Below are positions 14,248 to 54,613 of a stretch of DNA of 62,097 nucleotides, one piece after another (the stretch's first letter is position 1; each line of letters starts with the position of its first letter). Origin of the DNA: a virus. Lineage: Duplodnaviria > Caudoviricetes. Location of the stretch: positions 1 through 62,097 of the IMG/VR virus record IMGVR_UViG_3300023181_000031. The stretch is one strand, 5' to 3'. The notes under the pieces were generated by a model that worked only from the letters and a program-made list of their open reading frames with translations, did no database searches and was not told the origin of the DNA. Position numbers and translations under genes: made by a program.

Positions 14248-14250
14248 TTT

Positions 14251-14323
14251 GCCCTTTTAACTCAGTGAATAGAGTACCTGGCTACGAACTAGGGAGTCGT
14301 AAGTTTGATTCTTACAAAGGGTA
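14251..14323 (+). tRNA. tRNA-Arg(ACG), no encoded CCA
   Basis: GCCCTTT/AAAGGGT, ACTC/GAGT, CCTGG-CTACGAA-CTAGG, GTAAG-TTTGATT-CTTAC. Confidence 0.9.
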
Positions 14324-14348
14324 TTTATATATTTTAAGAGGTATAAAA

Positions 14349-19028: not shown

Positions 19029-22000
19029 TTATAATTGATATTCATTAAATATTTTAAAAGCATTATCAAAGTTATCATAGTATTCAGTTTTATTAGAATC
19101 ATTATCAATAGTTACTCTCCACTTAGTAAAGTAAAATTGTAGCTCTTTTGATTTGTCGCAATCTTCATTCATTTGTTTAAGTATTAACTTATGTCTTGCT
19201 AAGTATTCTTTAGAGATTATATCAGTAGTAGGAACATTACCCATCATTTTATCTAGTTCATTTTGTGCCTGCTCTTTTGATTCATAAGCATATGAAGCTG
19301 TAAGTTTATCTTTCTGACTTCTTAAAGTAACTTCTATAGCAAAGCCTTTAAACCATTGACTTTCCATATAAACAGGTAAATCAAAGTCTTTATATAATTG
19401 ACCTGTTTCTTTATGCTTGTATGGAAATAACTCAAGATAAGCACATGAGATATCATCAGGGTTAATATATTGTCCGCTTGGAGTTTTAATCATTTTGTTT
19501 TACCTTTAACTTATTACTATAATTTTATCAGGATTAAAACCACATTCTATTAAATCACTTTTAAATGTTTGATCGTTTATAAATGACTTATCAAATACAT
19601 ACGCACCATCTTCCCACATAGCTGTAATTAATTCTTTATCTTGATCTAAAGTTTTTAATATCTCGATTGCTTCACTTACTTTCATTTTTTAGTCCTTTAT
19701 ATCTTCAATAGGATTTTCAAAACTAATATTAGTTAAGTTTCCTTCTATAACTTTACCTGCAAACTCATCATTAAAGATACTTTCAGCACTTTCATGATAA
19801 TTAGTTTCGTCATAGTCGGACTGGTTTTGATTTTCCATTTGCTCTAATAATTCCTTAAAATAATTTAGATCACTTACTTTAATTAGATATAGATTACCTT
19901 CGTTATCGTATTGAAATGTTGATCTTTTGTTATTCATTTGATTAGCCCCTCTAAGTGCTTACTTAAATCTATAATATGATAATTTTTTTGTGTGTATTCT
20001 TTTTTATGTTCAAAGTTTTGTTTATCTTTTGGTATATTCCATGTGTGTTTATGCCAAGCGTATACAGTGGCTACTAAAAAACCTTCACTTTTGTATAATT
20101 TATCGTTGAATATTTTTTTAGTTTTTTTGTTAATTGCTATCCAAGTTTTAGTCATTTAAATTGATTCCAAAGCTAGTAATAATATCTCAGCTATAGTAAA
20201 ATATCTTAAAGTTTTTTGATCCTGAATAATAAATGTCATTTCTTCATTAAGGAAACCATGAATTAACCCACATACTTGATGTAATTCTTTATTAGTTAAT
20301 ATAAACATTGTTGCCTGATAACAGTTTTTAATTTCTACTCTGAAAGTTTGCATTAAATATTACCCTCGATAAACTTTGTATATTCTTGATAAAAATCTAA
20401 AGCTTCTTTCTTACGCTTTAAGGTATTAGTAAGCTCTTTTCTAAAATACTTTATATCTTTTTTATTTTGTTCTATTTCTTTTTCAATATATAGCTCGTAA
20501 GTTTCAGGAAACGAATTATAATACTTACTATAAAACTCGTTATTATATGAAAAGCCGTAAGACTCCTGTAAAAACTTTAAAGATGATTCTAACCCAGGTT
20601 TTATAATATCACTAGGATTTTTAGATAATAAAGTTTGTACTTTTTCAATAGATTTAGATAGATTTTCTTTTTCTTTATAAAATTTAGTTCTTTCTGAAAT
20701 TAAAGTTTTATTATTTTCTTCCATTGCTAAAAGATATTTATTTAGATAATTTAATTTTAAATGAGTTGCATATTTTATCTCAGTTAAAAACTTTTGACTT
20801 TCTGTTATTTTATTTTTGTAATAATTAAGTGATTTTTTATAGCTAGTATGAATATAGTTTAATATCTTTTCTTTAGTTATTTTTTCATCGTTATCAAAGT
20901 TAGCACCATATAATAACCCTAAGCATTGAGGTACTTGAGTTAGTAACCAATCTTTTAAATCATAATCAGACTGGATTAATTTATCTACTATAAAACTTGT
21001 CATTTTTTTAATCCTTATAATGTTTTGTATGTAATTGATAAATCATATATTTAGTATCGTTTAAAGTGTCACTAATTTTATTCAAGTCATGGTTTGATTC
21101 TTTTACAATTCTTTGAATCTCAGATATAGAGCTTTTGATATCGTAAATATCATGTATTGGTACATCTTTATATTTATCATTTTCTTTTAATTTACTTTCT
21201 AAGCTTAGATTTTTTTGTATAAAGTTGCTTAATTCATCTTTTAACTCTTGATTCTTTTGTTTTAAATGATATGTTTTATAAGAGTTAAAATAGTTAGATA
21301 TTATAAAGCCTAGTACTATCATTAAAATATAGATTATGTCCATTTATAGTAACTCTCCCATTTGTTTAACAATAGATTCAAACTCTTTAAAGTCTTTTAT
21401 AAACCCTTCTGATATCCCAAACGCATGGAATTTATTATTTAAATTAGCTATTTGACTGTGTAAGGTGTTGATGTTTTCCTCGGTGAAATCTAATTTTTGA
21501 AAGAATCCTGGATTATTTTCTACTAAGTCTTTTGATAAAGCTCCACTAGTACTAGATATATTTTTATATAAGTCATGTTTTTTATATTGTTGAATAATAG
21601 TATCTTTTGGAAAGTTTTCTAGTAAGTTAGTTATTACTTTGTATCTCATTGGTTTTCCCTTTTTTATTAATGTACATTCTTTTAGATTTCTTTTTCTGCC
21701 ATCATCAAATTTAATAACATAATCTATGTCACCGTTTTCATAAATATGTTCCACTGAATCGATCTTGTTAGTGAAAATATTATTTTTATGTTTATAGTGA
21801 TAATCATTAGGGTTAAATAACTTAAATTCAGATAAGGGTAAGGCACATCTATTAAAACAATCCTTAATATCTTGAACATTAATAGTATTATCCCATTTGC
21901 TAATTGATGTTACTTTTAATAAAATATTATATAAACTAGTTCCTTTTGATTTTTTTTCATTTAAAATAACTAAATCATTTACTTTTATTTCTTCAAGCAT

Positions 22001-23335
22001 TTTTTAATCCTTTAACATGTAAGCAGCACTTAATATAAAAACTATTATGATTAAGCCTTGCCAATCTAATTCAGACATTTAAACCTCTTCTACGTGTACA
22101 ATTAATTGATTTTTATATGTGTAATTAGAAGAGGCTACTGTTATTGCTTCATAAGCTAGAATTTTATATCTTGTAAGTTTTTTATCAGCATTGTAATTAA
22201 TTATTGATCCAACAGGTAAAATAAAATCTATTGGATTACCTTTTTTATAGTGCTTTTTTGCGTATTCAGTTAACTGATTTATTTCTTTGCCGTTACATGC
22301 TAATAGTATTTGAGCGTTATACATTTAAATTATTTCCCTTTTAAATTTTAAATCTCTTTTTTCTTTTCGATTCTTTGGTGCGTATGGCAATTCTAAAATA
22401 GTACGACCATCATTTTCGTGGTCAATAGATTTTATAATATAGTTAACTTTTTTGTTTTCAGTGAGAAGTGATACTATTTCACCTACTTGATATTTATAAC
22501 TTTGATCGCCTAAATATAAAACATTATCAGGTTCTTTAATTTTTAGCAGTTCATAAGAATTATTTATGTTATCTACTTTTATTTCATAGTCTCCTAGGAA
22601 TAATCTTTCATATTTTTTATTCTCTTTTTTAATATAATTTTCTCTCATAGTTTTTAAAGTTTTTTGAGATAAACTACTAGGCATTTCAAACATTGTTATT
22701 CTCCAACTATGCTAATATTTAAATCAACTCTTATTTTTACTTTCCATTCATCGCCTAATTCTTTTTCAAACGGTGTATTTTCGTGATAACAAACTAAAGT
22801 TAAATCATTGTAAGCGTTTAGATGAGTAATAGAAGTAAAATCATCTATGTAATATTTAAATGGTTCTTTACATGTAGGGCAATAACTTGTTATTAAAGCA
22901 TTTGTTTTAAAATTTGATTTAATTTTAATAAATTCATCTTTATTGTAATGAAGTTTACTTGGTATCATTTAGTTACGCTTTCCTAATATAGTTAATACCG
23001 ATTAATATTGCAGCTACACAAAATATTAAAGTGGTTATTATTATAATTGCTGTCCATAGTACTAGTATTAATTCAATCATTTAATAATCTACTTTTGCGT
23101 TAATTTTTTTTGGAAATTTCCATTTATCTTGAATTGTCCAAGATGCTTTTAAAAAACTAGGAAGTGTTGTTATATAAGTATTTTTATGATTTTGAGTTCT
23201 TTTAGTTACAAAATAAAACCTATCTCTATGTAAAGTTTTTGCAAAATGTTGAGCCTTTTTAGTTGTGTTAAATAATTTTACTTTAATTTCATTATTATCA
23301 ATATAATGTACAAATATTGTTGTTTTTAATTTCAT
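19029..23335 (-). other. Leftward block of more than a dozen small hypothetical CDSs (19029, 19689, 19934, 20156, 20353, 21008, 21344, 22079, 22325, 22696, 23081 and shorter ORFs)
   Basis: Head-to-tail ORFs with RBSs; no family recognised beyond SH3/KOW-like starts, coiled coils and a CxxC protein. Confidence 0.7.
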
Positions 23336-23458
23336 TATTTACCTTCTTTCAAATGCTTATATTTATCTAATATTTTATTTTGTTCATCTACTAATTCTTT
23401 GCAAGTAAGTTTTATCTTTTCAGTTACTTTTTTAGCTTTTAGCTCTAGTATTTCTATC

Positions 23459-23638
23459 TCAGTCATTTTTTACCTCTAATTCATCAGGAAAAAACCATTT
23501 TGTTTCTTTACCAATAATAGCTAAAATATAATCATCACTAATGTGAGTAATAGTTCCTGTTAACCCTAAATAAACATTTATATAACCTTTTCTTGTATTA
23601 ACTATTTTAACTGTATCATTTACTTTAAATTCATACAT
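23459..23638 (-). CDS. 59-aa stand-alone KOW/SH3-like protein (not in ORF track)
   Basis: MYEFKVNDTVKIVNTRKGYINVYLGLTGTITHI..KWFFPDELE. Confidence 0.75.
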   Translation of the reverse strand: MYEFKVNDTVKIVNTRKGYINVYLGLTGTITHISDDYILAIIGKETKWFFPDELEVKND

Positions 23639-23783
23639 TAGTTTTGTTCTCCTCTAAAGAATCTCTCATAGTTTCAAGTATCTGAGCTGTTACCGTTCGA
23701 CTTTCTATATCTGCTTTATCTTTAATCTTTTGATATAGCTCTATAGGAATTTTTAAAAGAATTGCGTATTTATCTTTACTCAT
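23631..23783 (-). CDS. Arc-like ribbon-helix-helix repressor (50 aa, not in ORF track)
   Basis: AILLKIPIELYQKIKDKADIESRTVTAQILETMRDSL. Confidence 0.8.
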   Translation of the reverse strand: MSKDKYAILLKIPIELYQKIKDKADIESRTVTAQILETMRDSLEENKTNV

Positions 23784-23955
23784 TGATTAACTCCAATTCA
23801 TTAGGTAAAAACCATTTTTCATCATTTCTAAAACTTAGTAAAATACTACTATCATTCATTTCTATAATTTCACCTGTTAAACCTAAATAAGAATTTATAT
23901 AGCCAGGTTCTGTATAAACAACTTTAACAGTATCGCCTATTTTAAATTTATCCAT
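23776..23955 (-). CDS. 59-aa stand-alone KOW/SH3-like protein, paralog of 23459..23638
   Basis: MDKFKIGDTVKVVYTEPGYINSYLGLTGEIIEM..KWFLPNELE. Confidence 0.75.
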   Translation of the reverse strand: MDKFKIGDTVKVVYTEPGYINSYLGLTGEIIEMNDSSILLSFRNDEKWFLPNELELINE

Positions 23956-23981
23956 TGATTACCTCTTAATAGAATATATAC

Positions 23982-24015
23982 ATTATATATTAAAAGTATA
24001 TACTTATGCTATAAT
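23982..24015. promoter_or_regulatory. Divergent promoters with central palindrome
   Basis: Plus TGCTATAAT 24007-24015; minus TATAAT 23987-23982; AAGTATATACTT 23994-24005. Confidence 0.65.
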
Positions 24016-24039
24016 AGATTTTATTTTATTGAGGTTTTT

Positions 24040-27000
24040 ATGTTAGAAACTTTATTTGTAATTAGCATAGTATTTGTAATTTATTCCTTAGTTAATATTT
24101 TTACAAAGTATAAAAGTCAAGTTAATGCTTTAGATTGTTTTATATTTTCAATATGTTGTGTTTTTGCTTTAACTTCTTGGCATAGTTTAGAAATAAAAGA
24201 GTTGAAACAAAGAGTTATTATTTTAGAATCAAAACAGGTTAAATAATGAAAACAGAATTTATTTTTAGAAGTAAAATAAGTGATAACTTTGAGTTAGAAA
24301 AAATAATAGGTAGTGAGAAACTAAAAGAAGTTATGTACTTAGATTTAAAAGATAGATTAGATTATATGCACGTTACTGAAACTTGTTTTAAAAAGATTAT
24401 TTATAATCAAAGTGAGTATTATCAAATAGAAGGTATTTTATTATCTGAGAATGTAGAAAAATACAAAGAATCTGTAAGAGAGAGTAAAGAGTTTTATGCT
24501 AAGTTAGAAGAAAAAGTTATTACTGTATCTATTATGAAGCCTGCCTCAATAAGTAAACCTGAAGATTACGGGTTTTAAATATGGAAAGTACACATAAATT
24601 TAGATACATTGTAACTGATGCTGAAAAACGTATAGTAGGTTTAAATAAAATTGGTAAAAATGCTTATAAGTCCTTAAAAGATAAATTTGATAGTTTGTTT
24701 TTAACTGAAACTAATTTTATATTTGTTTCAGGTGCTTTTAATGATTACTTTGAGATAGAAGGTATATTACTTCCAGAGAATAAAGAAAAGTATTATCAAG
24801 AGATAAAACGTATTGATTTAGAAGATAAATTAGAACAAGAAAAACTTAAAAACTTAGTTATTAAAGATTGTGATTGTGGGTGTAATTGCTGTGAGTAAAA
24901 AAATAAGTAATCGTAGGCATCATATAAAAAGCTATTACAAAAATAAAAAGAATAATCTTAAGCCTGTTTTATTTACTTTAAAATTTAATGCACAAAGTTT
25001 TAAACATGATATAGGTGAAATTGTTAAGAATATTAAGTGGTTAGATAAGCAGATTCAACAAGCTATACAAGGAATTAAATTAAATATTAATCAAGTGGGT
25101 TCAAGTTATAGTCAAGATAAAGTAAAACAACAAATGATTATTAATAGTTTTAAAAGGAATAAAAATGATGAGTAAATTTATAGTTGAATACTATGACACT
25201 GAAAAATTAAGAAGAGGTATTGAGCCTGTAAAAAAGATAGAGACAGATAATTTAAGTATTACAGAAACCGAGGATAAAATAATAATTACTATTGATAATA
25301 CATCTTCTAAAAAGGCTAAGGCTTTAGCTAAGTTAACTTATGCGGATAAAGTAGCTTTAGGATTAATAACAGAACATGATAGTAGGGACGGTACTATGGG
25401 ATTAAATATTGATTATAGCAAAGGTAGATAAAAATGATTGATGTTTATATCCCAGTTAAATTACTGGCTTCGATATTATGTTTTTTAATTGTAATTGTTA
25501 GTGTTTATTATTTGAGAGGTAAAAAGATATGACTTTAAAAATAGCGTATTTTCTTAGATTTATAGCTTTAATATTAACTATATTAGCTATTTATAGTCAT
25601 AATTTAAATTATTTTATATTCGCTTGGTTAGTTTATACCGAGAGTAATTTTATGGCTATAGAAAGTAAGTTTGAAGCTATAGGTAAAGGTTTAGGTAAGT
25701 TTAGTAAGATTGCTAAGGAGTTTATGAATGAGTAAAAAATATAAAGTACTTACTGATTTGATTAAAGATTTATCTTATCAAGATATACTAACTTTTGATG
25801 AAAAACAAAACGGTTATTCAATTTTAAAACGAATAGCTCCAAATGTAAAAGGTATGCAATCAATTTTATTTACTAAAGAAACTATAGAAAATTCACCTGA
25901 GTTTTTTAAATTAATTGAGTTTGATTTTAGTAAAAATGAAATAGATTCTAAATTATCTAACATAATAGCTATAAACTCTAATTATAATATCACTGGAAAT
26001 AAAAAGCTATTTATAGAATCTTTAGATGAACATATAAGATATTTGAAAGAACTTAGAGAGAAATTAAATGATTAAATTTTTAAATAAATACGGCTCTGAA
26101 ATTATTCTTATCTTATCATTAACAGGAGTTGTTACAAGTGCGGTTATAGTTGCAGGTTTTATGCCAAGAAATAAAGATTACGCTTTTAGAACTACTACAA
26201 AAACAATTATGGTCCAAGGTTGTGAATATTTAGTAAATGAGTATTGCAACGATGTTAGATGCTATATAGATAATGATATTCAAGATATGAAATTAAAAGT
26301 TAATGGTAATTGTGGAAAGTTAAAAGGTAAATAATATATGTTTGAAGAGTTTGAAATATGTGATAATCCAATAACAGAAACTAAAGAGCAACTTTTATTA
26401 ATCATAGCTGATTTAAACGATGAAATAGACGATTTAAAACATCAATTAAAACTTGCAACAGATAAAGATTATCGTTTAGACTGGATTAATAACGAATGGT
26501 TGCCACGAAACGGATTAAAAAATGTCAAAAATACCTAAATTTCAAGTATCGCAAAAAGTATATTTAAAAACTGATATAATTGCGGCAAGTTATAAATTAA
26601 ATATTAACGCAGAAGGTATAATTCAAGGTGTTTCCACAAATGCTGTAAAAGTATTATATAGCGTTTTATTTACTGATAGCGATTTAGTATTACTTATAAA
26701 TGAATGTTATTTAAATAATGAAAAGATTGAAATAGCTACTGAGACTATTGATGTAAAAGTTGAGAATTTAATATCTGTAATAACTAGGCAAGAATCTAAA
26801 ATAAAAGGTCTACAAGCACAATTAAAAAACTATGAGGATATATTAAATCAAATAGCTAAATTATCTAACCCGTGGAGTTAAAGAAATGAATCAAGGTGAT
26901 TATATAGAAATTAAAAAAGAAATAACCGAGAGTGAATTATATTATTTTAGAGGTGATAAAGATTTACTTATTAGAGCTACTTATCAAGAGATTACTAACG

Positions 27001-28507
27001 AGATTATAAAAGAATTAACTAAGTATATTGTTTTAGAGCATAGAAGTGAGCCTGATACTTGTAGTTTATATTTTAAAGGTAAATTTGATCTTAATTATAA
27101 ATTTACTGAGCAAGAAAATACTATTAAACAATTAGAATTTGATTTAGATACTTTAGAAGAAAGAAATACACAATTAACTCAGGCTGTGGATGTTTTACAT
27201 GCGGAGTGTGGAACTTATGTGGAAATTATCGAAAGTTTACAAGATAATGAGAAAACATTATTCAGTCTTATTGATATTAAAAATAGTGAATTAAAAGATT
27301 ATAGTAGTTTAATTATAAAATTAAGTTATGGAAGTCTTTTTATATTATTTTTAGGGTTAATTATATTTTTTATTTTAAATAGTTAGGTTTATAAAATGTT
27401 TGATTTTAATATTACAAAAGGGTTTATTTTATTAGTTATTTTATCCTTATTTGGTATTTATAAACTAATAGAAATTATAAGAGATTTAATAATATGAATG
27501 AAGAAGATAAAAACAAGCTTGCTTCTCAAATAGAGATAAGACGTATTCAATTAATTCAAGATTGGATATTAGAGCAATTAAACATTACTAAAGAAAGATT
27601 CACAGAGTCTTATCGTAAACTTAGAAACATAGAAATTAATTCAGAACATGTAAACGCTAACTTATCAATTTATAAGCTAATGAAAGATAATAAACAAAAA
27701 GGTTTGACTATGTTTTTATTTCAAAATATAATAGTTAAAGATGGAAAACATAAAGTAGAGTTAAGAAGTCAGTATATTGACGAAAATAAAAAGTAAAAGG
27801 TAAAAATTATAATGCAAAAAGAAATAGAAACAGCAGTTAAGTGGTGGAGTCAATTTTTAGAAACTACAGCTAAGTTTGATAATGGTGATAATAGTCATAC
27901 AGGTTTTATAACTTCTGTTATGGCAAGTATGTTGAGTGAGAACGTAAAAACTACTACACAAGATAAAGAAAAATTTGAAAAAGCATTTACTCAGATTTTA
28001 GAAGAAAAATATAAAACTAATTGGGACGAAAATAATCCTATATTTGGGGCAATGTATAATTCTATAAGCGTAGATTATCACCCTTGTAAATATCTTTGTG
28101 ACGCTGTTTCTTTAGCAGGTTTAGACTATGATATTAATAATAAATTCCCTTATAAAACTAATATGCGTGTACGCCCTGGCTTTGTTTCTGTTAGTTATGG
28201 TTACGGTGCAAAACAAGAGGTTTTATATACAGATAATAGAATAACTACTTTTAATATTCAACCTACTGAAAATCAAATAAATAAATATAAAGAAGAATTA
28301 AAAGATGAAAATGTTTTTTCTATAAAAATAAATGATTTTGAAAAATATAAATATTCTAATAGTAATTACTTATCTTATAGTTTTAATGATTGGGACGATA
28401 CAAAAAATTATGTTTATGTATCATGCTTAAGTAAAGATGCTGAAATAATTCTAAAATTAATTAATGAAAACATTGAATACATTGAATTAACAGAAACAAA
28501 GGAATAA
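24040..28507 (+). other. Rightward block of about 15 small hypothetical CDSs, several with TM segments; 24246 and 24581 are tandem paralogs
   Basis: Head-to-tail ORFs; shared LKD.(L/F)D...TET.F..Y..IEGILL.EN.EKY motif. Confidence 0.7.
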
Positions 28508-28514
28508 TCTATAT

Positions 28515-29318
28515 ATGAACTATGAAACAATAAAAAAACTCTATATAGATTCTCCAATATTCTCTAACGATGATAAATTTCTTAAGGTTTTAAAAAATAT
28601 TAATTCGGATAATTTAGATATCATTAAATCAAATGAATATTGTCAGGTATATTTTTATGATAACGATGCGTCAAAACCTTTTGCACTCGCAACCTATGTT
28701 GACGGTGTTATGATGGCTAAAAATTTTATAATTACTAAAAATAATTTAGCCATAGGAGTAAGAGAAACTAAAGAGATTATAGATATTAGTAATAAATATG
28801 ATTTAGTTATTCAAAGAGCATTAAATGATTATTTTGGAAAAGATAAAAGCATTCATGAACTAGGTAAATCGGCTTTTAGAAGGCGTGAAAACTTTGTTAT
28901 TGATTTAAATAGAGTTACAGACGGCTTAAAAGCAAAGAAAATATCTAAATTAAAAGCTTATCAACTAAATATTTGTAATGTAAATCAAGAAATACCTAGT
29001 TTTTTACTATCAAGAGTTGAGAATAAAGAAAAATTTACTAGATTAGTTATAGAATTTGATGTGTTAAATAGAGCATTAAATACTTTAGATATTCAATATT
29101 ATAGCGTTTTAGCTGTGTGGTTTTTTCCTGAAAGACCATCTAAAAATAATACTATTCAATTAGCTGCATCAAGATTAAAAAACAGTCAAATTTCAGCTAA
29201 GAGACAAACATCAAGGCGTAATAAAGAAACAGCTTTAAATGCTTTAATAGAGAATATTTCTTATACTCAATACTTAGATTTTATTAAAGCAGGCGAATTA
29301 TTATTAAAGCAATTTTAA
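28515..29318 (+). CDS. Putative late-gene transcriptional activator or antiterminator
   Basis: Last gene before the late leader; C-terminal sigma4/ArpU-like pattern ALNTLD..YSVL..IQLAASRL..RRNKETALNAL. Confidence 0.5.
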   Translation: MNYETIKKLYIDSPIFSNDDKFLKVLKNINSDNLDIIKSNEYCQVYFYDNDASKPFALATYVDGVMMAKNFIITKNNLAIGVRETKEIIDISNKYDLVIQRALNDYFGKDKSIHELGKSAFRRRENFVIDLNRVTDGLKAKKISKLKAYQLNICNVNQEIPSFLLSRVENKEKFTRLVIEFDVLNRALNTLDIQYYSVLAVWFFPERPSKNNTIQLAASRLKNSQISAKRQTSRRNKETALNALIENISYTQYLDFIKAGELLLKQF

Positions 29319-29437
29319 AAAGTTTTAGAATTAAAGTAAACTATTGTAACAAAAAACAATGAAATTTATTTTCAGCTATTTAAGACTATATCTTAGTTAT
29401 AAGTTATAAAATGAATCAAAAATGAATTAAATACTTA

Positions 29438-29553
29438 TGTTATATTAAAATGTATACAAAGTTTTTACATCAGGAGTAAGCTTTTATTTACCTTTTAGCT
29501 TACTCCAAACAAAATTAAATAATAAATCAAGACCTATAACGGGTCTTTTTTTT
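29438..29553 (+). ncRNA. Late promoter plus about 100-nt leader RNA (10-bp stem, 14-nt anti-RBS-like loop, intrinsic terminator)
   Basis: TGTTATATT 29438-29446; GGAGTAAGCT-tttatttacctttt-AGCTTACTCC 29473-29506; AAGACCT/GGGTCTT + T run 29529-29553. Confidence 0.6.
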
Positions 29554-29567
29554 AATGGATAAATAAA

Positions 29568-30272
29568 ATGGCTAGACCTAAGAGTAAAAAAGATAAAGAT
29601 AACGAGCCTGATCTAATAGAACAAGATGAAAAGTTAAAACTAGCACCCGTACACATGGCTATAGATGCTTATTATGGTAGAAACGAAGATAACACAGGTT
29701 CTTTAATTTTTAACGTTAGTGATGAAGATATTGATTTAGACTATCCCGAAGATGATCTCGAAGAGGAAAATTTAAACGAATATAAGCAAGTTGAGAAAGA
29801 ATCTAAAAAAGATGGCACAGAAGAAAAAATAAAAGCTCATCATAAAGTACCTACTCATAGAGAATTTGTAAAAGCGTTTTTTAAACATCGTGGAATTAAA
29901 TTAAATATAGCTAATGAATTAAATATAACTAGACGTGCTTTAGATCGTAGATTAAATAGAAGTAAAACATTAAGAGAAGCTTTAAAAGATGCAATAGCAA
30001 ACGGTGTTGACGGGGCACAAAGTAAGTTAGTTGAACTTATGGACGGTGTAGTTATCCAAGACTATGATTTTAGAGGCAAGCCTATTGTATATAAAACTGT
30101 TCCTTGTACTAAATCAATTCAATTTTATTTACGTAAACAAGGTAAAGAATTAGGTTATGGAGACGAAGTTAAAGAAGAAGCTAAAAAACCTCTTGATAAT
30201 GGCTCTATAGATAATTTAGTCGATGCTATTAATCGAAGTACTGAAAAAATGAATAAAGAAGATAATGCTTAG
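29568..30272 (+). CDS. Terminase small subunit
   Basis: HTH IANELNITRRALDRRL, AQSKL, SIQFYLRKQGKELGY; overlaps terL. Confidence 0.75.
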   Translation: MARPKSKKDKDNEPDLIEQDEKLKLAPVHMAIDAYYGRNEDNTGSLIFNVSDEDIDLDYPEDDLEEENLNEYKQVEKESKKDGTEEKIKAHHKVPTHREFVKAFFKHRGIKLNIANELNITRRALDRRLNRSKTLREALKDAIANGVDGAQSKLVELMDGVVIQDYDFRGKPIVYKTVPCTKSIQFYLRKQGKELGYGDEVKEEAKKPLDNGSIDNLVDAINRSTEKMNKEDNA

Positions 30273-31536
30273 TACCGAAGATAATATAATTAATGCTAAG
30301 TTTCAATTTGGTGAGTTTTCAAGAAAAGCATTATTATCATTAAGTTTAAGTACAGCTCGTTATAATATCTGGGAAGGCTCAGTATCAAGCGGTAAAACTA
30401 TAACCTCTATAGTTAGATGGATTTCATACATAAAGACAGCCCCAAGAGGTCGTCTTTTAATGGTAGGTAAAACAGAACGTACATTAAAAAGAAACGTACT
30501 AGATGATTTACAGGCTATAGTTGGCACTGATAACTATAAGAAAAAAGGTGATGGCGAAATAATTGTTTATGGTCGCGTAATTGATCTTGTTGGAGCTAAT
30601 GATGAAAGGGCACAAGATAAAATAAGGGGTGGTACTTATGCGGGTGCTTATTGCGATGAGATTACCTTATACCCTGAAAGTTTTTTTCAAATGTTAATTA
30701 CTCGTTTAAGGGTGTTAGGCTCTCAATTATTTGGAACTACTAACCCCGATAGTCCTTATCATTGGTTAAAAGAAAATTATTTAAATAATACTAAATTAGA
30801 TTTAAAAATATTTTCCTTTACTATGGATGATAACCCGAATTTAGATCCTAGTTATGTCGAAGCTATGAAAAAAGCATTTACAGGACTTTGGTATAAAAGA
30901 TTTATTCTTGGCTTGTGGGTTATGGCTGCGGGCGTTATTTATGATGTATTTAAAGATGATATACATAAACTAGATTCTATACCTAGTACTTTTGATAGTT
31001 ATTATGTGGGTATGGATTACGGCACTAATAACCCGTGTGTATTCTTACTTTTTGGTAAGCTAAATAATAAGTATTACTTGATTAAAGAGTTTTATCACGA
31101 AGGTAGAAAAGAAGGACAAAAGACTGATTCTTATTATGCTACTAAATTAAAAGAATTTGTTAAGGGTTATAAAATTACTAAGTTTTTCCTTGATCCTAGT
31201 GCATCAAGTTTTAAAACTGAGTTAAAAGAGCAAGGTATTTATACAACTGATGCGGAAAACTCTGTTATTGATGGAATAAGAAAAACATCATCTATTATTG
31301 ATAACAATAGATTATTTATACATACAACTTGTAAACATACCTTAAAAGAATTTTCATCTTATATATGGGATGAAAAAGCAGGTAAAAAAGGCGTTGATAA
31401 GCCTATTAAAGCTAATGACCATGCGTTAGACGCATTACGTTACGTACTTTATAGTTTAGAATCAAGCCCGCCACCTAACGTAGAAGTAATAGAAACTTAC
31501 GGAGATAGAAAAAATTATGATAGTGAATTTGATTAA
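30265..31536 (+). CDS. terL: Terminase large subunit, PBSX family
   Basis: EGSVSSGKT, AYCDE, TTNPDSPYHWLK, GMDYGTNNP, DPSA, NDHALDALRY. Confidence 0.95.
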   Translation: MLSTEDNIINAKFQFGEFSRKALLSLSLSTARYNIWEGSVSSGKTITSIVRWISYIKTAPRGRLLMVGKTERTLKRNVLDDLQAIVGTDNYKKKGDGEIIVYGRVIDLVGANDERAQDKIRGGTYAGAYCDEITLYPESFFQMLITRLRVLGSQLFGTTNPDSPYHWLKENYLNNTKLDLKIFSFTMDDNPNLDPSYVEAMKKAFTGLWYKRFILGLWVMAAGVIYDVFKDDIHKLDSIPSTFDSYYVGMDYGTNNPCVFLLFGKLNNKYYLIKEFYHEGRKEGQKTDSYYATKLKEFVKGYKITKFFLDPSASSFKTELKEQGIYTTDAENSVIDGIRKTSSIIDNNRLFIHTTCKHTLKEFSSYIWDEKAGKKGVDKPIKANDHALDALRYVLYSLESSPPPNVEVIETYGDRKNYDSEFD

Positions 31537-32912
31537 TGAGTAATTTAAGTTACTCAACAGGTCTATTTAATACAACTTTGGTTAATCCTTTATTTAACCA
31601 AGATAAATTAAAAGAGATAGAAAGAGTAATTAAGAAAGATCCAACTATTGAAGTAGGTCAATCTGTAAATACAATTAATACTACTCAAATACTTGATTTA
31701 GGTGAAGATGATTATTATGGATTCGGTAGAAATAAAATCCTTAATGATAAGGGTATCGCTAAAATTGAAAAGTATGTCGAAAAAGACGCTCAGGTTATAG
31801 CATGTAGAGAGCTTTTACTAGGCTCAGTAGTTCAATTAGTACTTAGTATACATGTATCTACCAAATGTCCTGAAAAACAAGAATTAGCGGACGAATTAGC
31901 CGACTTTTTTAATTATGTTTTTGATAGTATGCAAGGTACTATTGAGGACGAACTAAGACAATTAGTAGGTGATATTTACGGATACGGTTTATCTGAATTT
32001 AAATGGAAATATTCAGATGATTTAAGATTTGAAAATAAATTAATTATTGATGCTTTAAAAAATAAGAAACAAGGCTTATATCAATTTGATTGCGATAGCT
32101 TTGGAAATATATTAAGTATAAGTAATTTATGGAATCCAAGCCAACCTTTACCCGTTAGTAAGTTTTGTTATTCTACTTGGAAGAAAAAATATAGTAATCC
32201 TTACGGTTGCGGATTAGCGGAGACACTTTATTTTTTATGTTTTGCTAAACGTGAATTATTGAAAGGTAAACTTAAACGTTCAGACAAAGAGACTAGACCT
32301 ACTGTAGTTATTTCTATGCCTTCTACCCCTGATAATGCTTTAATTAAAGCAGCTAATAAATTTTTACAGGATATAGAACATAGTACAGGCGGTACACTTC
32401 CAGACCCTTTAAAAGCTGAGTTATTAGATAGATTTTCAAATAGTAATACTTCTAATGATTTAGATATACTTAAATTTCTAAACGAAGAAATATCAAAATG
32501 TATTCTTGGTAATTCATCAGAAGCTAATAATTCAGAGGGTGGAAGTTACGCAAGATCAAAAGTATCATCACAAGTTACTAAAGTAAATATTATGTACTTA
32601 ATTAAGCACTTAGAGGATATTGTTAAAGAACAAATTATAAAGCCAATGGCACGTTATAACTTTGATCCTAACATATACACAAGTGACTTATACCCTACTG
32701 CTAAATTTGGAGAAGTAGAAGAAGAAAGTAAAGATAGTCTAGTAGATAGATTGGTTAGTCTTGCAAATGCTAATTTTATAAATGCGACAGATAAAAACGT
32801 CCGTGAGTATGTAAGAAAAATTGATGATATTCCTGAGCCTGAAATTATAGCAAATCCTAATGATGATATTTCAAGTGACGAAACTATTGCTTTTGTAAAT
32901 AAAAATAAATAG
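31536..32912 (+). CDS. Portal protein (DUF935/Mu gp29-like)
   Basis: NPYGCGL..LY, NEEISKCILG, GGSYARSKV, QIIKP; follows terL. Confidence 0.88.
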   Translation: MSNLSYSTGLFNTTLVNPLFNQDKLKEIERVIKKDPTIEVGQSVNTINTTQILDLGEDDYYGFGRNKILNDKGIAKIEKYVEKDAQVIACRELLLGSVVQLVLSIHVSTKCPEKQELADELADFFNYVFDSMQGTIEDELRQLVGDIYGYGLSEFKWKYSDDLRFENKLIIDALKNKKQGLYQFDCDSFGNILSISNLWNPSQPLPVSKFCYSTWKKKYSNPYGCGLAETLYFLCFAKRELLKGKLKRSDKETRPTVVISMPSTPDNALIKAANKFLQDIEHSTGGTLPDPLKAELLDRFSNSNTSNDLDILKFLNEEISKCILGNSSEANNSEGGSYARSKVSSQVTKVNIMYLIKHLEDIVKEQIIKPMARYNFDPNIYTSDLYPTAKFGEVEEESKDSLVDRLVSLANANFINATDKNVREYVRKIDDIPEPEIIANPNDDISSDETIAFVNKNK

Positions 32913-32924
32913 GTGAAAATATAA

Positions 32925-33137
32925 ATGAATATAAAAACTTGTGATTTACCATTTTACAATATGATGAAAGATTTAGGTATTAATGATAATGACTTTAGTT
33001 ATATTGAAGATGAAGATGGTAGTACTATAGCGGTACATCAAAACATATTAGAAAAATTACCATTAGATAATTTAGAGCCTGAAAAACAACAAAAAGTTAT
33101 GACAATGCTAGCCGCTTGTAATATATATGAAAATTAG
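32925..33137 (+). CDS. Small hypothetical protein
   Basis: Lies between portal and protease. Confidence 0.6.
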   Translation: MNIKTCDLPFYNMMKDLGINDNDFSYIEDEDGSTIAVHQNILEKLPLDNLEPEKQQKVMTMLAACNIYEN

Positions 33138-33146
33138 GTTTAAATA

Positions 33147-34520
33147 ATGTCTGATTTAGTAATTGATTTTCCAAACGTAGAAATATTTAGTACTGGTACT
33201 TTTAACGGTAAAGTTACTACATTAGAAGACTTACAAGACGCTGTAAAAGCTTATAACGAACTTGGTTATATGCCTGACATTAAAATAACTCATGAAGATA
33301 CTAAGGCTGATAGAGATAAACGCTATGACATATTTAAAAAATTTCCGTTTATATTAGGTAAAGTAGCAAACTTAAGACTTGTAGCTAATAAATTAATAGG
33401 TGATTACGTTAATGTTTTAGAACCTGTTAAAAAAATGATTCAAGATAAATTATTAATTACACACTCAGCCGAATATTACAGAAATATAAAAGCAGATAAT
33501 GCAAACAAATCATATAAGGCTTTATTCTCAGCGGTTGCATTACTTCCCGTTGGTGAGATACCCGCATTATTTGAAGTATTTAAACCTTACATGTACGGAT
33601 TAGAAAAAAGCTCTATAGAAAATTTTGAATCTTTGCATATAGACGATTTTGAACATGGAAAGAAATTAATTTATGTAATCTCAGAGGAGATCAACACAAT
33701 GACAGAAGAGGAATATAAAAAGGCAATGATGAAGTACTCTGAGATGGGTATGTCTATTATGTCTTTTGCTAAATTTTCCGCTTTAAGTGAAGCGGCACAA
33801 AAAGAATATATGGATAAAATGAAAGAGGAGTCAGACGAAACTATGAGTAAAAATACTGTTCAAGTTGAACCAAAACAAGAGCCTATAAATACTGCAAACA
33901 TTATAGATGAAAATAAACGTCTTAATGCTGAAGTTGAACAATATAAGCTAGAATTTGCAAAATCCAAAGAGGCTGAAATTGAAGCAAGATTTAAACAAAA
34001 AGAAGATGCTTTAAATGCTAAGTTAAAAGAACAAGAAGATGAACAAAAAGCATTAAAATTTAGATTAGATCAATTAGCTTTAGATAAAAATGAAGCTGAG
34101 GACAAAGACTTTATTTCTAATTTAATTAGAAGTGCAAAATTATCACCTGGAAAAGAATCATTTGCATTAGCTAAAATGAAAGAATTTAGAAAAGCTGATA
34201 TAGAAACACCTGTTAAACTTAAATTTTCAGTAGGTGATACTATTCAAGAATTTAGCGTAACTGATGCTGTAAAAGACTTTATGAATAATATATTAATTGA
34301 AAATAAAGCTTATCTTACAGATGAGTTAGCACCTGATAATGAAGGTTTAACCAAACAACAAAAAGAAAAGTATTCAGTAGATGCAGACCCTAAAAGCGTT
34401 ATGTATCAATTACAGGCTGAAAAATACGCAAAAGAAAACAATATAGATATTTCAACTACTGAAGGTTTAACCGAGTGTTTAACAGCGGTTGGAGCGTATG
34501 ACGCTTTAATGAAATTATAA
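33147..34520 (+). CDS. Prohead protease-scaffold (Mu gpI-like) with probable internal scaffold start at 33699
   Basis: VEIFSTGTF, IKITH, LGKV, SAEY, AVALL..PA; coiled-coil C-terminal half; GAGGAG before in-frame ATG 33699. Confidence 0.82.
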   Translation: MSDLVIDFPNVEIFSTGTFNGKVTTLEDLQDAVKAYNELGYMPDIKITHEDTKADRDKRYDIFKKFPFILGKVANLRLVANKLIGDYVNVLEPVKKMIQDKLLITHSAEYYRNIKADNANKSYKALFSAVALLPVGEIPALFEVFKPYMYGLEKSSIENFESLHIDDFEHGKKLIYVISEEINTMTEEEYKKAMMKYSEMGMSIMSFAKFSALSEAAQKEYMDKMKEESDETMSKNTVQVEPKQEPINTANIIDENKRLNAEVEQYKLEFAKSKEAEIEARFKQKEDALNAKLKEQEDEQKALKFRLDQLALDKNEAEDKDFISNLIRSAKLSPGKESFALAKMKEFRKADIETPVKLKFSVGDTIQEFSVTDAVKDFMNNILIENKAYLTDELAPDNEGLTKQQKEKYSVDADPKSVMYQLQAEKYAKENNIDISTTEGLTECLTAVGAYDALMKL

Positions 34521-34537
34521 AAATATCATTCATTTCT

Positions 34538-34563
34538 AACTAGCTTAATAGGCTAGTTTTTTT
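34538..34563 (+). terminator. Intrinsic terminator within the late operon
   Basis: AACTAGCT/GGCTAGTT + T run. Confidence 0.7.
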
Positions 34564-34592
34564 ATGTCTATTTTCTAGGAGGAAATAAAACA

Positions 34593-35015
34593 ATGGCAGT
34601 TACAAGAGGAACAGAAAGACCAATCTCTTATAGTTCAGGTTCGGCTACTTTAAAAGCTGAGATCCCAGTAATGGAAGGTACAGCAATAAATGAACATAAA
34701 ACAGTTATAGCACCATTAGCACAAACATCTAAAATTTCAGGTGTAACAATGACTGACGCTGTTTATTTAGGTCAAGGCGTAGATGTTATGTCTACACCAG
34801 GAGCTAGAGTAAAACTACAAATAGCAACAGGTCAAGTAGGTACAAAAGATTTATATGCAATATTAGACGCTACAGAGTTTGCACTAGGTAGAGTTAAGGC
34901 GGCTACTCTTGCACAAGCGGTAACAGCAACAGCAACCGTTATTGGCAAGTTTACAGAATCAGGCGTAGCACTTGATTTTGTAGAAGTTGAATTAATGCTA
35001 CAAGCTACAGTTTAA
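34593..35015 (+). CDS. Capsid decoration/cement protein
   Basis: 140 aa, A/G/T/V-rich, immediately before the MCP; strong AGGAGG RBS. Confidence 0.7.
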   Translation: MAVTRGTERPISYSSGSATLKAEIPVMEGTAINEHKTVIAPLAQTSKISGVTMTDAVYLGQGVDVMSTPGARVKLQIATGQVGTKDLYAILDATEFALGRVKAATLAQAVTATATVIGKFTESGVALDFVEVELMLQATV

Positions 35016-35038
35016 TAACATAAAGGAGATATAGACAA

Positions 35039-36007
35039 ATGGCAAATTTTGCAAATATAAATGTTAATGTTCCTATTACACAGATACAGCTAAAGCGTGT
35101 TTTAGACCATGAAACTTTTATTGTAGATAAAATATTTAAACCTGTTCCTACTGTAAGTGATACAGGTACTTATACAAAATGGGATAATTCACACCTTAGA
35201 ATTGAAGATTCAAAGTTAGGGCCTCACGGTATAGCTAATATTGTTAAATCAAACGTTAGTATTACAGGTAATTTTAATGTTGAAGATTATGCACTTAAAG
35301 AGTTTCTTTCTGATAAAGAATTAACAATGGCTTATCCTACTATTAGACCACAATTAATTAATAATGCTGCTAGTGGTGTTGTTGATAGACTTTGGATTCA
35401 AAAAGAGAAAAAAGCGGCTGATATGCTTTTTAATACTAGTACTTTTGCGGGTAGTACAGAGGCGTTAGGCTCAGGAACTCAGTTCGATGATCCATCAAAT
35501 ACAAGTATATTTGAGCAAATTGGAGACGCTGCACAAACTGTTAAAAATAAATCAGGTAAAAGAGCAAATACAATTATTATGGGTAGTGCTATATGGGCTA
35601 AATTAAGAAATAGACAAGAGTTTCTAGCTAGACTTAAAACAACCGCTGATGCTAAATTCACTACACAAGCATTTCAAAACTTACTTAATTATGATAATTT
35701 AGCTATTAATCAGGTTCTTGTAGGTGATGAACAATACAACGCTGCTAAAGAAGGTCAAGTGGATAACTTTGTAGATTTATGGGGTAATTATTTCTTAGTT
35801 TGTTATATTGAACCAGGTCAAAACTCTACAGCTAACGTTTCACTTGCTAAGAACTTTACAAGAGGCGGACAAGAAACCGTACAAATGAGAGTATTTAAGA
35901 AAGACCCTGAAGAAACAGGTAACTGGTATCGTGCAAATACTGCTTATGATTTAAGAGTTATCATGAGTGCCGCAGGTTATTTATTCTCTAATGTTATTTC
36001 TACATAA
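35039..36007 (+). CDS. Major capsid protein (HK97 fold)
   Basis: FIVDKIFKPV, RANTIIMGSAIWAKL, LWGN, AAGYLFSNVI; position in operon. Confidence 0.88.
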   Translation: MANFANINVNVPITQIQLKRVLDHETFIVDKIFKPVPTVSDTGTYTKWDNSHLRIEDSKLGPHGIANIVKSNVSITGNFNVEDYALKEFLSDKELTMAYPTIRPQLINNAASGVVDRLWIQKEKKAADMLFNTSTFAGSTEALGSGTQFDDPSNTSIFEQIGDAAQTVKNKSGKRANTIIMGSAIWAKLRNRQEFLARLKTTADAKFTTQAFQNLLNYDNLAINQVLVGDEQYNAAKEGQVDNFVDLWGNYFLVCYIEPGQNSTANVSLAKNFTRGGQETVQMRVFKKDPEETGNWYRANTAYDLRVIMSAAGYLFSNVIST

Positions 36008-36021
36008 GGAAGGTTTAAAAA

Positions 36022-36435
36022 ATGGAAAATAATCAAGAACTAAAAAAAGAAAAAATGAGAACTGTTTATCTTTTAGAAGGTCAAAAAATAAGTAAAAAAG
36101 AAGATGGTCAACTTGTTAGAACTGTAGGCCCTAAAGAAATACAAGTTAATGAGTCAGACTATAACTTATATGTTAATGATTTAAAAATAGCTATTGATAC
36201 TAAAGATAAAGATAGCGAAAATTTAATCAATGAAACAGGTTTAAGTTTAATTGAAGTAAATAATATTAAAGATGAGAATATTATGCTTCAAGAAAAAGTT
36301 AAAGAGCTAGAAGTTTTATTATCAGAAGCAAACGCTAAAAACTTAGAATCTGAGAAAATTAAATCAGATAAAAAAAGTAATAAAAATGTAGCGTCTGAAA
36401 TTAAAACCGATTTAGACGTTAAGGATAACGCTTAA
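36022..36435 (+). CDS. Hypothetical virion-assembly protein
   Basis: Follows the MCP; charged C-terminus. Confidence 0.6.
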   Translation: MENNQELKKEKMRTVYLLEGQKISKKEDGQLVRTVGPKEIQVNESDYNLYVNDLKIAIDTKDKDSENLINETGLSLIEVNNIKDENIMLQEKVKELEVLLSEANAKNLESEKIKSDKKSNKNVASEIKTDLDVKDNA

Positions 36436-36437
36436 TT

Positions 36438-37184
36438 ATGTTTTGCTCAGTAATGGAAGTTAAATCACTTTGTAAATTGATTGAAAACGGATCATTTAAC
36501 GATGATTATGTTCAACGTTATATTAATCAAGCAGAAGCATGGGCTTATGGAAAAATAGAAGATAAGTATATTTGTCCGCCTATACCTAATGTTTTACCTA
36601 CTGGTTTAATTTCTATTACTGCAAATACTAAAGAACAAAACGACGCTAAAAATCCACAAATAATTACAGGTGTTGATACTTTGTTTAAAACACAAAAGGT
36701 AAGACCTGAACAACATATATATATCTATGATTCTAATGAAGTAGCTATTATTAAATCTGTAGATAGTGAAACACAACTAACTGTTTATTTCTTTCAAAAT
36801 AAAATAAAATCCTCTAATGTTAACATTGTAAATAATCCAATTAAAACAAGTGTTACTAATTCGGAATTTTATATTTTAAATGAAAAGTTATGTACAGCTA
36901 TTAGTTATATGGCTGCTAAAAATTTAATTATGGTAGATTTTTCAGACACAGCATATAAACAAGATACTTACCCATTCTATAAACAATATAAGCAATTCGC
37001 TAAAGAAATACTAGACGATTTAGAAAATGGACGTTTCTATGATTCTTCTTTAGCTCCTCAAAATGGTTTAAATACACCCGCTAGAGTAGTAACCACTGTT
37101 AAAAACTCTGATTATTATAATAGTAAGTATTTTAGTTATGAATTAGATGATTGCGGTTATAGAGATAGAAGGTTTTTTGAATGA
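36438..37184 (+). CDS. Head-tail adaptor (Mu gp36-like) with inserted beta domain
   Basis: FCSVMEVK..YINQAEAW..Y..P, AKEILDDLENG. Confidence 0.65.
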   Translation: MFCSVMEVKSLCKLIENGSFNDDYVQRYINQAEAWAYGKIEDKYICPPIPNVLPTGLISITANTKEQNDAKNPQIITGVDTLFKTQKVRPEQHIYIYDSNEVAIIKSVDSETQLTVYFFQNKIKSSNVNIVNNPIKTSVTNSEFYILNEKLCTAISYMAAKNLIMVDFSDTAYKQDTYPFYKQYKQFAKEILDDLENGRFYDSSLAPQNGLNTPARVVTTVKNSDYYNSKYFSYELDDCGYRDRRFFE

Positions 37185-37687
37185 TTAATGTATCTATAAC
37201 TATTGAGGATCAAAACGTTAGAGCTATATTTAATAAAGTATTAGCTAAACTAAACGATTCACCTAAGTTATTAGAAAAAAACGCTAGAATGATAATATTA
37301 GGCTCAATACGAGAAAATATTAAAAGTCAAAGCAATATAGTTCCTTCTAATGATGGTACTAAATTTAAGATTCTAAGTGAAAGATATAAAAATTCTAAAG
37401 CTTTTAAAAATAGACCTCGTAACTCTCAAAATCCATTAGACACACAGAATTTTATTGATTCTTTTTATGTCGCTCCTATGAGTTCTGTACAGTCTCAACA
37501 ATCAGGTTTAGCGGTAACAAGTAGACACCCTGGGGCTTTTACACATACAAAAGGATTAACAGTAAATATATTCGGTAAAACTCAGTATAAATTTCCTGAA
37601 CGTAACGGAATATGGCTTTCAGAGCGTGCCCAACAATTAATAGCTAACAATATTCAAATGGAGCTAATTAATGCCACAAAATCCTAA
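37181..37687 (+). CDS. Virion morphogenesis/neck protein (Mu gpG-like)
   Basis: LSERYK..PLDT..AFTH..G..FPER..WLS. Confidence 0.65.
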   Translation: MINVSITIEDQNVRAIFNKVLAKLNDSPKLLEKNARMIILGSIRENIKSQSNIVPSNDGTKFKILSERYKNSKAFKNRPRNSQNPLDTQNFIDSFYVAPMSSVQSQQSGLAVTSRHPGAFTHTKGLTVNIFGKTQYKFPERNGIWLSERAQQLIANNIQMELINATKS

Positions 37688-38201
37688 CCGAGATTATGAA
37701 TATTTAATTAGAGATGCAATGGCTCAGATTTTATACAATGACGTATATTTTCAAGAGATATTCAAAAACTATGAATTGTCTGAACAAACAGGACAAACAA
37801 TTTTTAATATTTATAAATCTAGTTTATTAGAAAACACTATTGCGTCTTACCCTGCCTTAGCTGTTTATTTTGAGAATGAAGCTACTTATCAAAGAAACAA
37901 TATTTTAAACTATGTTAAGCCTGTTATTTTAGTTGATGTAGCTTATCAATCATCACATCAAGAATACGGAGAAAGAGACGCTAAGGAGCAATCTTTTTTT
38001 ATATGTAGGGATATTACAGCTACATTATTATGCGAAAGTAATTTATATCAAACAGTAAATAATATTCCTATTCAAATTAGTGATTTAAAATTACTTAAGA
38101 TAGAGCCTTTAGCAAGTTTTAATGATGGTGGTAACTGGACTTTTATCACTACAATAATTTTTGAAATTAATACCCCTGAACTAAAAGCACCACGTTTTTA
38201 A
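37671..38201 (+). CDS. Putative tail terminator
   Basis: SYPALAVY; precedes the tail tube gene. Confidence 0.55.
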   Translation: MPQNPNRDYEYLIRDAMAQILYNDVYFQEIFKNYELSEQTGQTIFNIYKSSLLENTIASYPALAVYFENEATYQRNNILNYVKPVILVDVAYQSSHQEYGERDAKEQSFFICRDITATLLCESNLYQTVNNIPIQISDLKLLKIEPLASFNDGGNWTFITTIIFEINTPELKAPRF

Positions 38202-38268
38202 ATTCACACAATAAATTTATTTTAACCTTCTAATAAGAGGGTTTATTTAACCATAGGAGGTTAAACAC

Positions 38269-39126: not shown

Positions 39127-39158
39127 ATTTTTCTTCCAAAATCAAACATGTTTAAACC

Positions 39159-39194
39159 ATATAGGGCAGTAACCTTTTACTGTCTTATATTTTT
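39159..39194 (+). terminator. 14-bp hairpin after the tail tube gene
   Basis: ATATAGGGCAGTAA-cctt-TTACTGTCTTATAT + T run. Confidence 0.6.
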
Positions 39195-39220
39195 ATTATA
39201 AATAAAGGAATATATATTAA

Positions 39221-40748: not shown

Positions 40749-40812
40749 CTTTCTTAATGCTCTTTAGATACGGTCGAAAAGAGCATTTATATTTTTTTCT
40801 AATGGGTGACTA

Positions 40813-54527: not shown

Positions 54528-54566
54528 TAAAAAAGATTCTAGCTATTTCTAACTAGAATCTTTTTT
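54528..54566. terminator. Bidirectional intrinsic terminator
   Basis: AAAAAAGATTCTAG/CTAGAATCTTTTTT between convergent operons. Confidence 0.85.
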
Positions 54567-54613
54567 ACTATAAGCTATTGAAAACGGTGATTAAGTTATT
54601 ATTATAACATAAA

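Follow-up and report, generated by a model that had tools for sequence, protein, structure and literature searches.

What the short intergenic region immediately ahead of the packaging genes of this phage does, and whether an RNA made from it would act on its own operon, on other messages or not as RNA at all, are the questions raised by this locus. The stretch of DNA analysed (the window) is a linear IMG/VR virus record of 62,097 bases with an estimated completeness of ~47%, from an uncultivated, AT-rich, siphovirus-like phage of 27% GC (21-33% along the window) with strong Shine-Dalgarno (SD) usage. The + strand carries every ORF from 24040 to 54527, and 3′ of the unit considered here lie TerL (30265-31536), a Mu-type portal, a head protease and the major capsid protein. 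The features on which the argument turns are as follows.

28515-29318 (+): ORF of 267 aa, sitting where a late regulator usually does
29409-29427 (+): direct repeat AAATGAAT, present twice (at 29409 and at 29420; spacing 11 bp) in the position expected of a -35 element
29427-29595 (+): block of 169 nt with 0 differences in a co-occurring minor strain of metagenome run X1, the flanks differing by 7-17%
29435-29446 (+): promoter-like word TTATGTTATATT, with an extended -10 of the form TGnTATATT and without a -35 hexamer
29438-29446 (+): extended -10 TG-T-TATATT (TGTTATATT), read from the sequence
29451-29458 (+): palindrome TGTATACA of 8 bp, where transcription is expected to start
29473-29482 and 29497-29506 (+): stem of 5′ arm GGAGTAAGCT and 3′ arm AGCTTACTCC, 10 of 10 pairs Watson-Crick
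29483-29496 (+): 14-nt loop TTTATTTACCTTTT (UUUAUUUACCUUUU), read from the sequence
29507-29528 (+): A-rich linker, single-stranded in the predicted fold
29529-29553 (+): intrinsic terminator, stem AAGACCU/GGGUCUU (7 pairs, 29529-29547), loop AUAAC, U8; -7.2 kcal/mol
29568-30272 (+): ORF of 234 aa, first gene past the terminator, ATG at 29568; probable small terminase subunit (terS)
34538-34558 (+): terminator-like site inside the late operon, past the protease/scaffold region, with an RBS directly behind it and no room for a promoter
39159-39190 (+): terminator-like site inside the late operon, past a 285-aa ORF

The two genes that border the region are themselves poorly characterised by homology. 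The 234-aa ORF had 0 matches in Pfam or PHROG, and we regard it as probably terS because it overlaps the start of terL, shares a C-terminal tail with a relative (12 of its last 18 residues are identical to those of the ORF preceding terL in locus L002, described below) and has neighbours in the Atlas among small-terminase/HTH clusters (177-179 shared features at a score of 0.94), which is no more than a lead. The 267-aa ORF upstream belongs to no Pfam or PHROG family, gave 0 matches in a PDB profile search and matched none of Ltr, LtrA, LtrB, LtrC, RinA, ArpU or DUF1492; its AF2 model (pLDDT 50.8) was too poor for a structure search, and the only Atlas lead, a weak one, was to sigma-70 r2/r4 clusters (139 shared features at rank 26, 134 at rank 28). 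Four metagenomic homologues of this ORF were found, at 40-90% identity. A Pfam scan of the non-structural ORFs that reach 60 aa or more, 72 in all, assigned 24 families, with no Q, N, NusG-like, sigma, Ltr or other antiterminator family among them. Because these 72 ORFs hold no such family and the 267-aa ORF has none, there is no read-through factor that can be named for the late operon.

A promoter at this site is suggested by a word rather than by the -10 motif as such. The original prediction had pointed to an extended -10, which is indeed present; however, in AT-rich DNA the 9-nt motif alone is uninformative (107 matches with at most one mismatch, against 93 +/- 10 expected), and it is the 12-nt word TTATGYTATAWT that carries information. 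Exact copies of this word occur at only three sites in the window, 24004(+), 29435(+) and 54601(-), all of them intergenic, intergenic DNA making up 9.2% of the window; dinucleotide shuffles contain 0.54 matches on average, and 3% of them reach three. The copy at 24004(+) stands 25 nt ahead of the first gene (24040) of the rightward operon. We take the three sites as a putative class of -35-less promoters, and the 29435 site is absent from the list returned by a -35-dependent promoter scan. In addition, the strain comparison described below places the upstream edge of conservation at 29427, 11 nt upstream of the TG, which fits a promoter that needs no -35. The direct repeats that occupy the place of a -35 element are a possible activator site; they fall almost wholly in DNA that diverges between strains. 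A palindrome similar to the one at the expected start, AGTATATACT (23994-24003), abuts the upstream side of the promoter word at 24 kb, and AGTATATACT and TGTATACA may represent a shared operator.

Downstream of the promoter word, sequence and predicted fold agree with the original prediction of a perfect 10-bp stem closed by a 14-nt loop. Folded alone, the hairpin (29473-29506) reaches -13.8 kcal/mol, and the 111 nt from 29450 to 29560 reach -23.9 kcal/mol against -12.3 +/- 2.7 in shuffled sequences (z -4.36; 0 of 200 shuffles as good). AGGAG is present inside the 5′ arm. A window-wide Rfam search returned a tRNA only, the leader matching no family; at E <= 10, the interval 29250-29650 gave seven weak matches, the best of them Phe_leader, at 20.5 bits where the gathering score is 55. 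Two familiar kinds of leader were considered and rejected. No ATG, GTG or TTG follows the expected start, and the only candidate for a leader peptide is a 10-codon frame beginning with ATT, its SD locked in the stem; nor does the leader hold a complement to the terminator arms from which a terminator/antiterminator switch could be built. Pairing in cis between the loop and the terS start region amounts to -6.4 kcal/mol only.

The terminator likewise lies where it was first described, just ahead of the probable terS: its 7-pair stem is followed by eight T residues, the last at 29553, which leaves 14 nt before the ATG at 29568. Terminator-like sites in 28500-30500 number two, against 0.6 +/- 0.9 in shuffles, and these are the two strands of a single hairpin, so that the only such site in this interval falls downstream of the promoter word. 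Over the wider interval 22000-41000 there are 8, against 4.6 +/- 2.3 expected. The gap of only 14 nt leaves no space for a promoter between the T-run and terS, and no copy of the promoter word follows the terminator-like hairpins at 34538 or 39159. Since a promoter cannot be accommodated between the leader terminator and terS and two further terminator-like sites lie within the operon, the late genes must be transcribed through terminators.

This arrangement suggests a terminated late leader like lambda PR′-tR′, serving as a cis-acting control region of the packaging and structural operon, a reading to which we give about an even chance of being correct. The anatomy of the sequence, the repeated promoter word, the conservation between strains and the terminator-like sites downstream are direct observations; from them we infer promoter activity, termination, a need for antitermination and a role for the hairpin, which would fit together as follows. 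Among the RNA runs searched, none contained the region. The -35-less extended -10 promoter (29435-29446) would initiate transcription near 29453; the resulting leader of ~100 nt would fold into a single stable hairpin; the intrinsic terminator would stop RNA polymerase 14 nt ahead of terS, and the late genes would be expressed only when RNA polymerase reads through. The conserved hairpin would most likely be a cis-acting leader element, either the recognition site of a read-through factor or an RNA stability element, and the short terminated RNA would be a by-product that may have acquired a second role. Because the terminator stem is modest (-7.2 kcal/mol), read-through may also be simple leakiness.

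In phage lambda, transcription of the late genes starts at PR′ and yields a short leader (6S RNA) ending at the tR′ terminator, and the Q antiterminator acts through qut. Unlike lambda, the present phage encodes no Q-family protein or other recognisable antiterminator among the 72 ORFs scanned, and its late genes begin with terS, not with lysis genes, in an uncultivated, siphovirus-like phage of 27% GC. In Stx phages, according to the sections of PMC7547250 used here, the terminated PR′-tR′ late leader is processed into StxS, a trans-acting sRNA. The likeness to both systems lies in the order of a promoter, a ~100-nt leader and an intrinsic terminator directly ahead of the late genes, with further terminators downstream, and in the short RNA being an unavoidable by-product, which in the case of StxS acts in trans (PMC7547250, same sections). 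If the cis-acting reading is correct, a lambda-like late switch built on a terminated leader and read-through would operate in an uncultivated, very AT-rich phage, and the lack of any known antiterminator or Ltr family would point to an unrecognised read-through factor or RNA element. One feature that counts against a purely cis-acting leader is that the complete identity of loop and linker between strains exceeds what a purely structural hairpin would need.

The same anatomy might be read without a promoter, the middle operon (24040-29318) ending in the hairpin and terminator as its 3′ structure and the late genes being reached by partial read-through from upstream. We regard this as very unlikely. 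It would agree with the single-strand arrangement of all genes from 24040 to 54527 and with the lack of enrichment of the extended -10 by itself, and Ltr-type phages of Gram-positive bacteria, as presented in the portions of PMC3753634 relied on here, do have a terminator between the regulator gene and terS. However, 210 nt separate the stop codon of the 267-aa ORF from the terminator, all copies of the 12-nt promoter word lie at operon boundaries, and the 108 nt from that stop codon to the conserved block (29319-29426) are poorly conserved, conservation beginning sharply just 5′ of the promoter word. In the Ltr/RinA phages covered by those portions of PMC3753634, the terS promoter comes after the terminator, and the gene for a small basic activator is found upstream. 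With these and ArpU-type systems our locus shares a regulatory intergenic region directly upstream of terS, an abutting gene of the preceding cluster and direct repeats before the promoter (PMC3753634, same portions), but its terminator comes after the promoter. It differs, too, in that the upstream ORF is 267 aa long and without a family match, and in that the repeats are not conserved between strains.

Returning to the terminated late leader, further evidence comes from comparison of 28400-30800 with Logan contigs from two leaf-litter metagenome runs (X1, from which the record itself may derive, and X2). The minor strain in X1 (depth 5.3) differs from the window at 42 of 259 positions in 29021-29279, at 21 positions plus 2 indels in 29337-29456 and at 7 of 101 positions in 29566-29666, for flank totals of 63/379 upstream and 7/101 downstream; the unitig that covers 29427-29595 has a depth of 19.7, approximately the sum of both strains. 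In the same strain the segment 29280-29336, where the 267-aa ORF has its stop codon, gives way to 24 unrelated bases; the C-terminus and 3′ flank of that ORF are thus variable, and the leader 90 nt further on is invariant. The X2 strain has one substitution somewhere within 29412-29563 (152 nt) and one T missing from the T-run, against 20/215 and 8/151 differences (28/366 in all) in its coding flanks. At the flank rates, the probabilities of the block outcomes in the X1 and X2 strains are 5e-14, 5e-6 and 7e-4. The block reaches from 11 nt 5′ of the TG through the hairpin, linker, terminator and RBS into the first 28 nt of terS. Such identity shows either strong constraint on the proposed unit, at the level of RNA or of DNA, or a very recent shared tract, and the 169-nt identical tract could be one of recent recombination. 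The element is small (~120 nt) and sharply bounded by the strain comparison.

That every base of the block is kept and that the block spans the start of terS would also suit an element acting as DNA, with the RNA fold incidental: the block, together with its 10-bp inverted repeat and the direct repeats upstream, would be a pac-type site for the small terminase that covers the beginning of terS, or the operator of a DNA-binding regulator. The pac region of SPP1-type phages likewise extends across the start of terS. The stem is a complete palindrome and contains zero G-U pairs, so it bears no RNA-specific mark, and the nearest relative, L002, has a terL 82% identical to that of our phage together with an unrelated terS and an unrelated upstream region, which implies that terS and the DNA upstream of it are exchanged as one unit. 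On the other hand, the centres of the two arms are separated by 24 bp, a spacing that would put the halves of a simple dimer site out of helical phase, and the hairpin sits exactly between the promoter word and a U8-tailed terminator, as is typical of transcribed leaders. We consider a DNA-level element decidedly unlikely.

The original prediction went further and proposed that the ~100-nt terminated leader is a trans-acting sRNA, the loop pairing with AAAGGUAAA-type ribosome-binding sites (RBSs) of phage (or host) mRNAs and lowering their translation. At the level of sequence such an RNA would have a candidate promoter, a candidate terminator and a stable fold, and its loop is invariant in two strains. 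Complementarity to start regions was assessed on an uncurated ORF set from a longest-ORF script: 117 ORFs of at least 45 aa, 13 of which were dropped (TTG or GTG start, or at most 40 nt from an end), leaving 104 ATG starts. That the complement of the loop corresponds to the RBS motif of the phage was confirmed: the commonest GG-containing words at -25 to -1 of these starts, AGGTAA (18), AAGGTAA (13) and AAAGGTAA (10), all lie within it. Exact matches to the complement are found, as reported, over 13 nt at 26322-26334, which become 14 nt when the closing A of the stem is included, and over 11 nt ending at the RBS of the gene at 23335.

Preferential pairing with start regions was likewise upheld, with 0.2-2% of shuffled loops as good as the real one and coding controls pairing less well. 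The loop pairs at <= -8 kcal/mol with 24 of the 104 start regions, whereas 1000 shuffled loops average 5.9 +/- 4.3 and only 0.2% of them do as well; the same threshold is reached by 23% of start regions and 0.6% of 160 coding control windows. The mean pairing energy is equalled by 1.8% of shuffles, and when target accessibility is added 0.25-2% of 400 shuffles are as good. Neither the 5′ single strand of the leader nor the A-rich linker shows start-region pairing (their means were matched by 73% and 97% of 300 shuffles), and the complementarity is therefore specific to the loop. Against these figures stand others that temper them. Most of the predicted duplexes are short, 9-10 nt and nearly all A-U, at -8 to -9.4 kcal/mol, and the mean energy is equalled by 7% of 154 shuffles that keep the CC. 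Once the search is widened to the 146 loops that the 73 perfect hairpins of the window provide, nested versions included, the loop is the second-best distinct one, after a 19-nt loop that lies antisense inside terL, and some of the targets are tandem paralogues (15396/15638 and 9056/9208) and hence not independent. The pattern of loop-RBS complementarity is real and nominally significant, yet not overwhelming.

A role in shutting down early and middle genes would further predict a contrast between classes, which we sought by dividing the starts into late genes (22 ORFs on the + strand with starts in 29568-54000) and all others (82 ORFs). Predicted pairing does not differ between the two (Mann-Whitney p 0.73; <= -8 kcal/mol in 3/22 late and 21/82 other starts, p 0.39). 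The assertion that late genes use AGGAG instead does not hold for this set, AGGAG being present at 4/22 late and 16/82 other starts (Fisher p 1.0). AAGGTAA shows a trend (0/22 late against 13/82 other, p 0.065), AAAGGTAA occurs at 0/22 and 10/82 (p 0.115), and an accessibility-corrected energy of <= -6 kcal/mol is reached at 1/22 and 18/82 (p 0.069), so that the early-versus-late contrast is weak. The related phage G001 (L014-L016; 43 kb, 29% GC, 53 ATG-start ORFs) has neither the hairpin nor the AAGGTAA word, which none of its 53 starts carries, compared with 13 of 104 in our phage (p 0.005). Since G001 is without AAGGTAA, this word is a peculiarity of the present phage and not simply an SD imposed by the host.

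Taken with the loop complementarity, the joint lack of hairpin and word in G001 speaks for the anti-RBS sRNA, as do the AAGGTAA and accessibility trends and, as a partial precedent, StxS in the cited sections of PMC7547250; the proposal is also compatible with a role in cis, as for StxS. Its main difficulties are that pairing energies fail to separate late from other genes, with AGGAG equally frequent in both, that the loop of an analogously placed hairpin in L002 has no such pairing, and that the promoter looks constitutive and so would not by itself provide a late switch. We consider the sRNA proposal unlikely. In a combined version, the leader would be bifunctional, a gate in cis for the late operon and at the same time an abundant ~100-nt RNA with its loop as an anti-RBS seed against AAAGGUAAA sites, turning down an early/middle regulon; the putative target class would then comprise 13 of the 82 non-late genes, no late gene and 0 of the 53 genes of the related phage. 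We hold this to be doubtful in about the same measure.

In IMG/VR, terL relatives are found at 5 loci, of which only L002 is close (82%), and the terS of L002 is unrelated to that of our phage apart from the 18-aa tail mentioned above. Alignment of the L002 upstream region with the leader was matched by 24.7% of 300 shuffles and, under three other scorings, by 10-52% of 500; a resemblance noted by eye (TTATGTTA..AGTTTTTA..AGCTTAC..CAAACAAAA) was dropped, the alignment being no better than shuffles. L002 does have, at 3196-3246, a 12-pair hairpin with a 13-nt U-rich loop (UUUUUCAUAAUUU, -18.1 kcal/mol), with a TGTTAATAT word on one side and its packaging genes on the other, a likeness that speaks for the cis-acting leader, our preferred reading. 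This hairpin precedes an extra 69-aa ORF and the locus's own unrelated terS, an analogous position with no terminator, and its loop showed no anti-RBS pairing with the 53 start regions of its own phage (51% of shuffles as good). A search of IMG/VR with the exact-stem pattern gave 3 stretches, all with unrelated contexts and unrelated loops, and one with the terminator word gave 0 matches. No IMG/VR relatives were found for terS, for the 267-aa ORF or for its 5-member alignment; neither terL nor the alignment of the 267-aa ORF found any in genome_contigs, and terL found only 3 distant loci (29-52%) in metagenome_contigs. Thus, among the distant relatives covered by the scans of IMG/VR, genome_contigs and metagenome_contigs, none carries the leader element.

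Known RNAs and proteins that act on many translation starts provide a frame for the less likely trans-acting role. Anti-SD sRNAs of Firmicutes of the RNAIII, RsaE and RoxS type expose a C-rich (UCCC) hairpin loop that complements the SD regions of many mRNAs. Our leader is like these in having an accessible hairpin loop complementary to many SD regions and in ending with a terminator, but the C residues of its loop are just a CC set among A and U. T4 RegA is a protein that shuts off translation of phage early genes. The resemblance to RegA lies in the proposed repression of multiple genes at A/U-rich translation starts of early phage mRNAs; unlike RegA, the effector here would be an RNA loop, not a protein. 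To our knowledge, timing of a phage's own translation programme in this way is known only for a protein (T4 RegA), StxS being a distant precedent, and our literature search found no case of a phage that turns off its own early translation with an anti-SD RNA directed at many targets. If the trans-acting role also proved correct, one small RNA would time the translation programme of the phage by way of a common ribosome-binding word, as an RNA counterpart of T4 RegA built from the by-product of a late promoter. The description of this as an undescribed timing mechanism is nevertheless too strong for the general idea, given StxS and its origin from a PR′-tR′ leader in the sections of PMC7547250 used here; what would set our candidate apart from StxS is that its proposed seed is an anti-SD hairpin loop.

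Several observations concern the far end of the window. The third copy of the promoter word, TTATGTTATAAT (54612-54601, -), faces a bidirectional terminator hairpin of 22 bp (54524-54571, -24.6 kcal/mol) at the convergent end of the late operon, and the two together would give rise to a second short RNA of ~75 nt (54594-54518, -), the 5′ single strand of which shows no anti-RBS enrichment (30-33% of shuffles as good). Beyond it, a leftward cluster (54614-61799, -) carries genes for nucleotide metabolism and DNA functions, including ThyX (55888-56532), a GIY-YIG/NUMOD3 homing endonuclease (56529-57374), a PD-(D/E)XK nuclease, a dCTP deaminase-like protein (59350-59985) and a Rha-domain protein (60756-61799). 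In the same cluster, a 109-aa ORF (59987-60316, -) matches Pfam PF24203, Phage_ProQ_C_like, only weakly (E 3.9e-4; 21.5 bits, where the cut-off is 27); were the match real, the ORF would encode a phage protein resembling an RNA chaperone, and a match of this kind, though below the Pfam cut-off, would favour an sRNA. Elsewhere, a tRNA-Arg (anticodon ACG) at 14250-14324 is the sole Rfam/ARAGORN match in the window.
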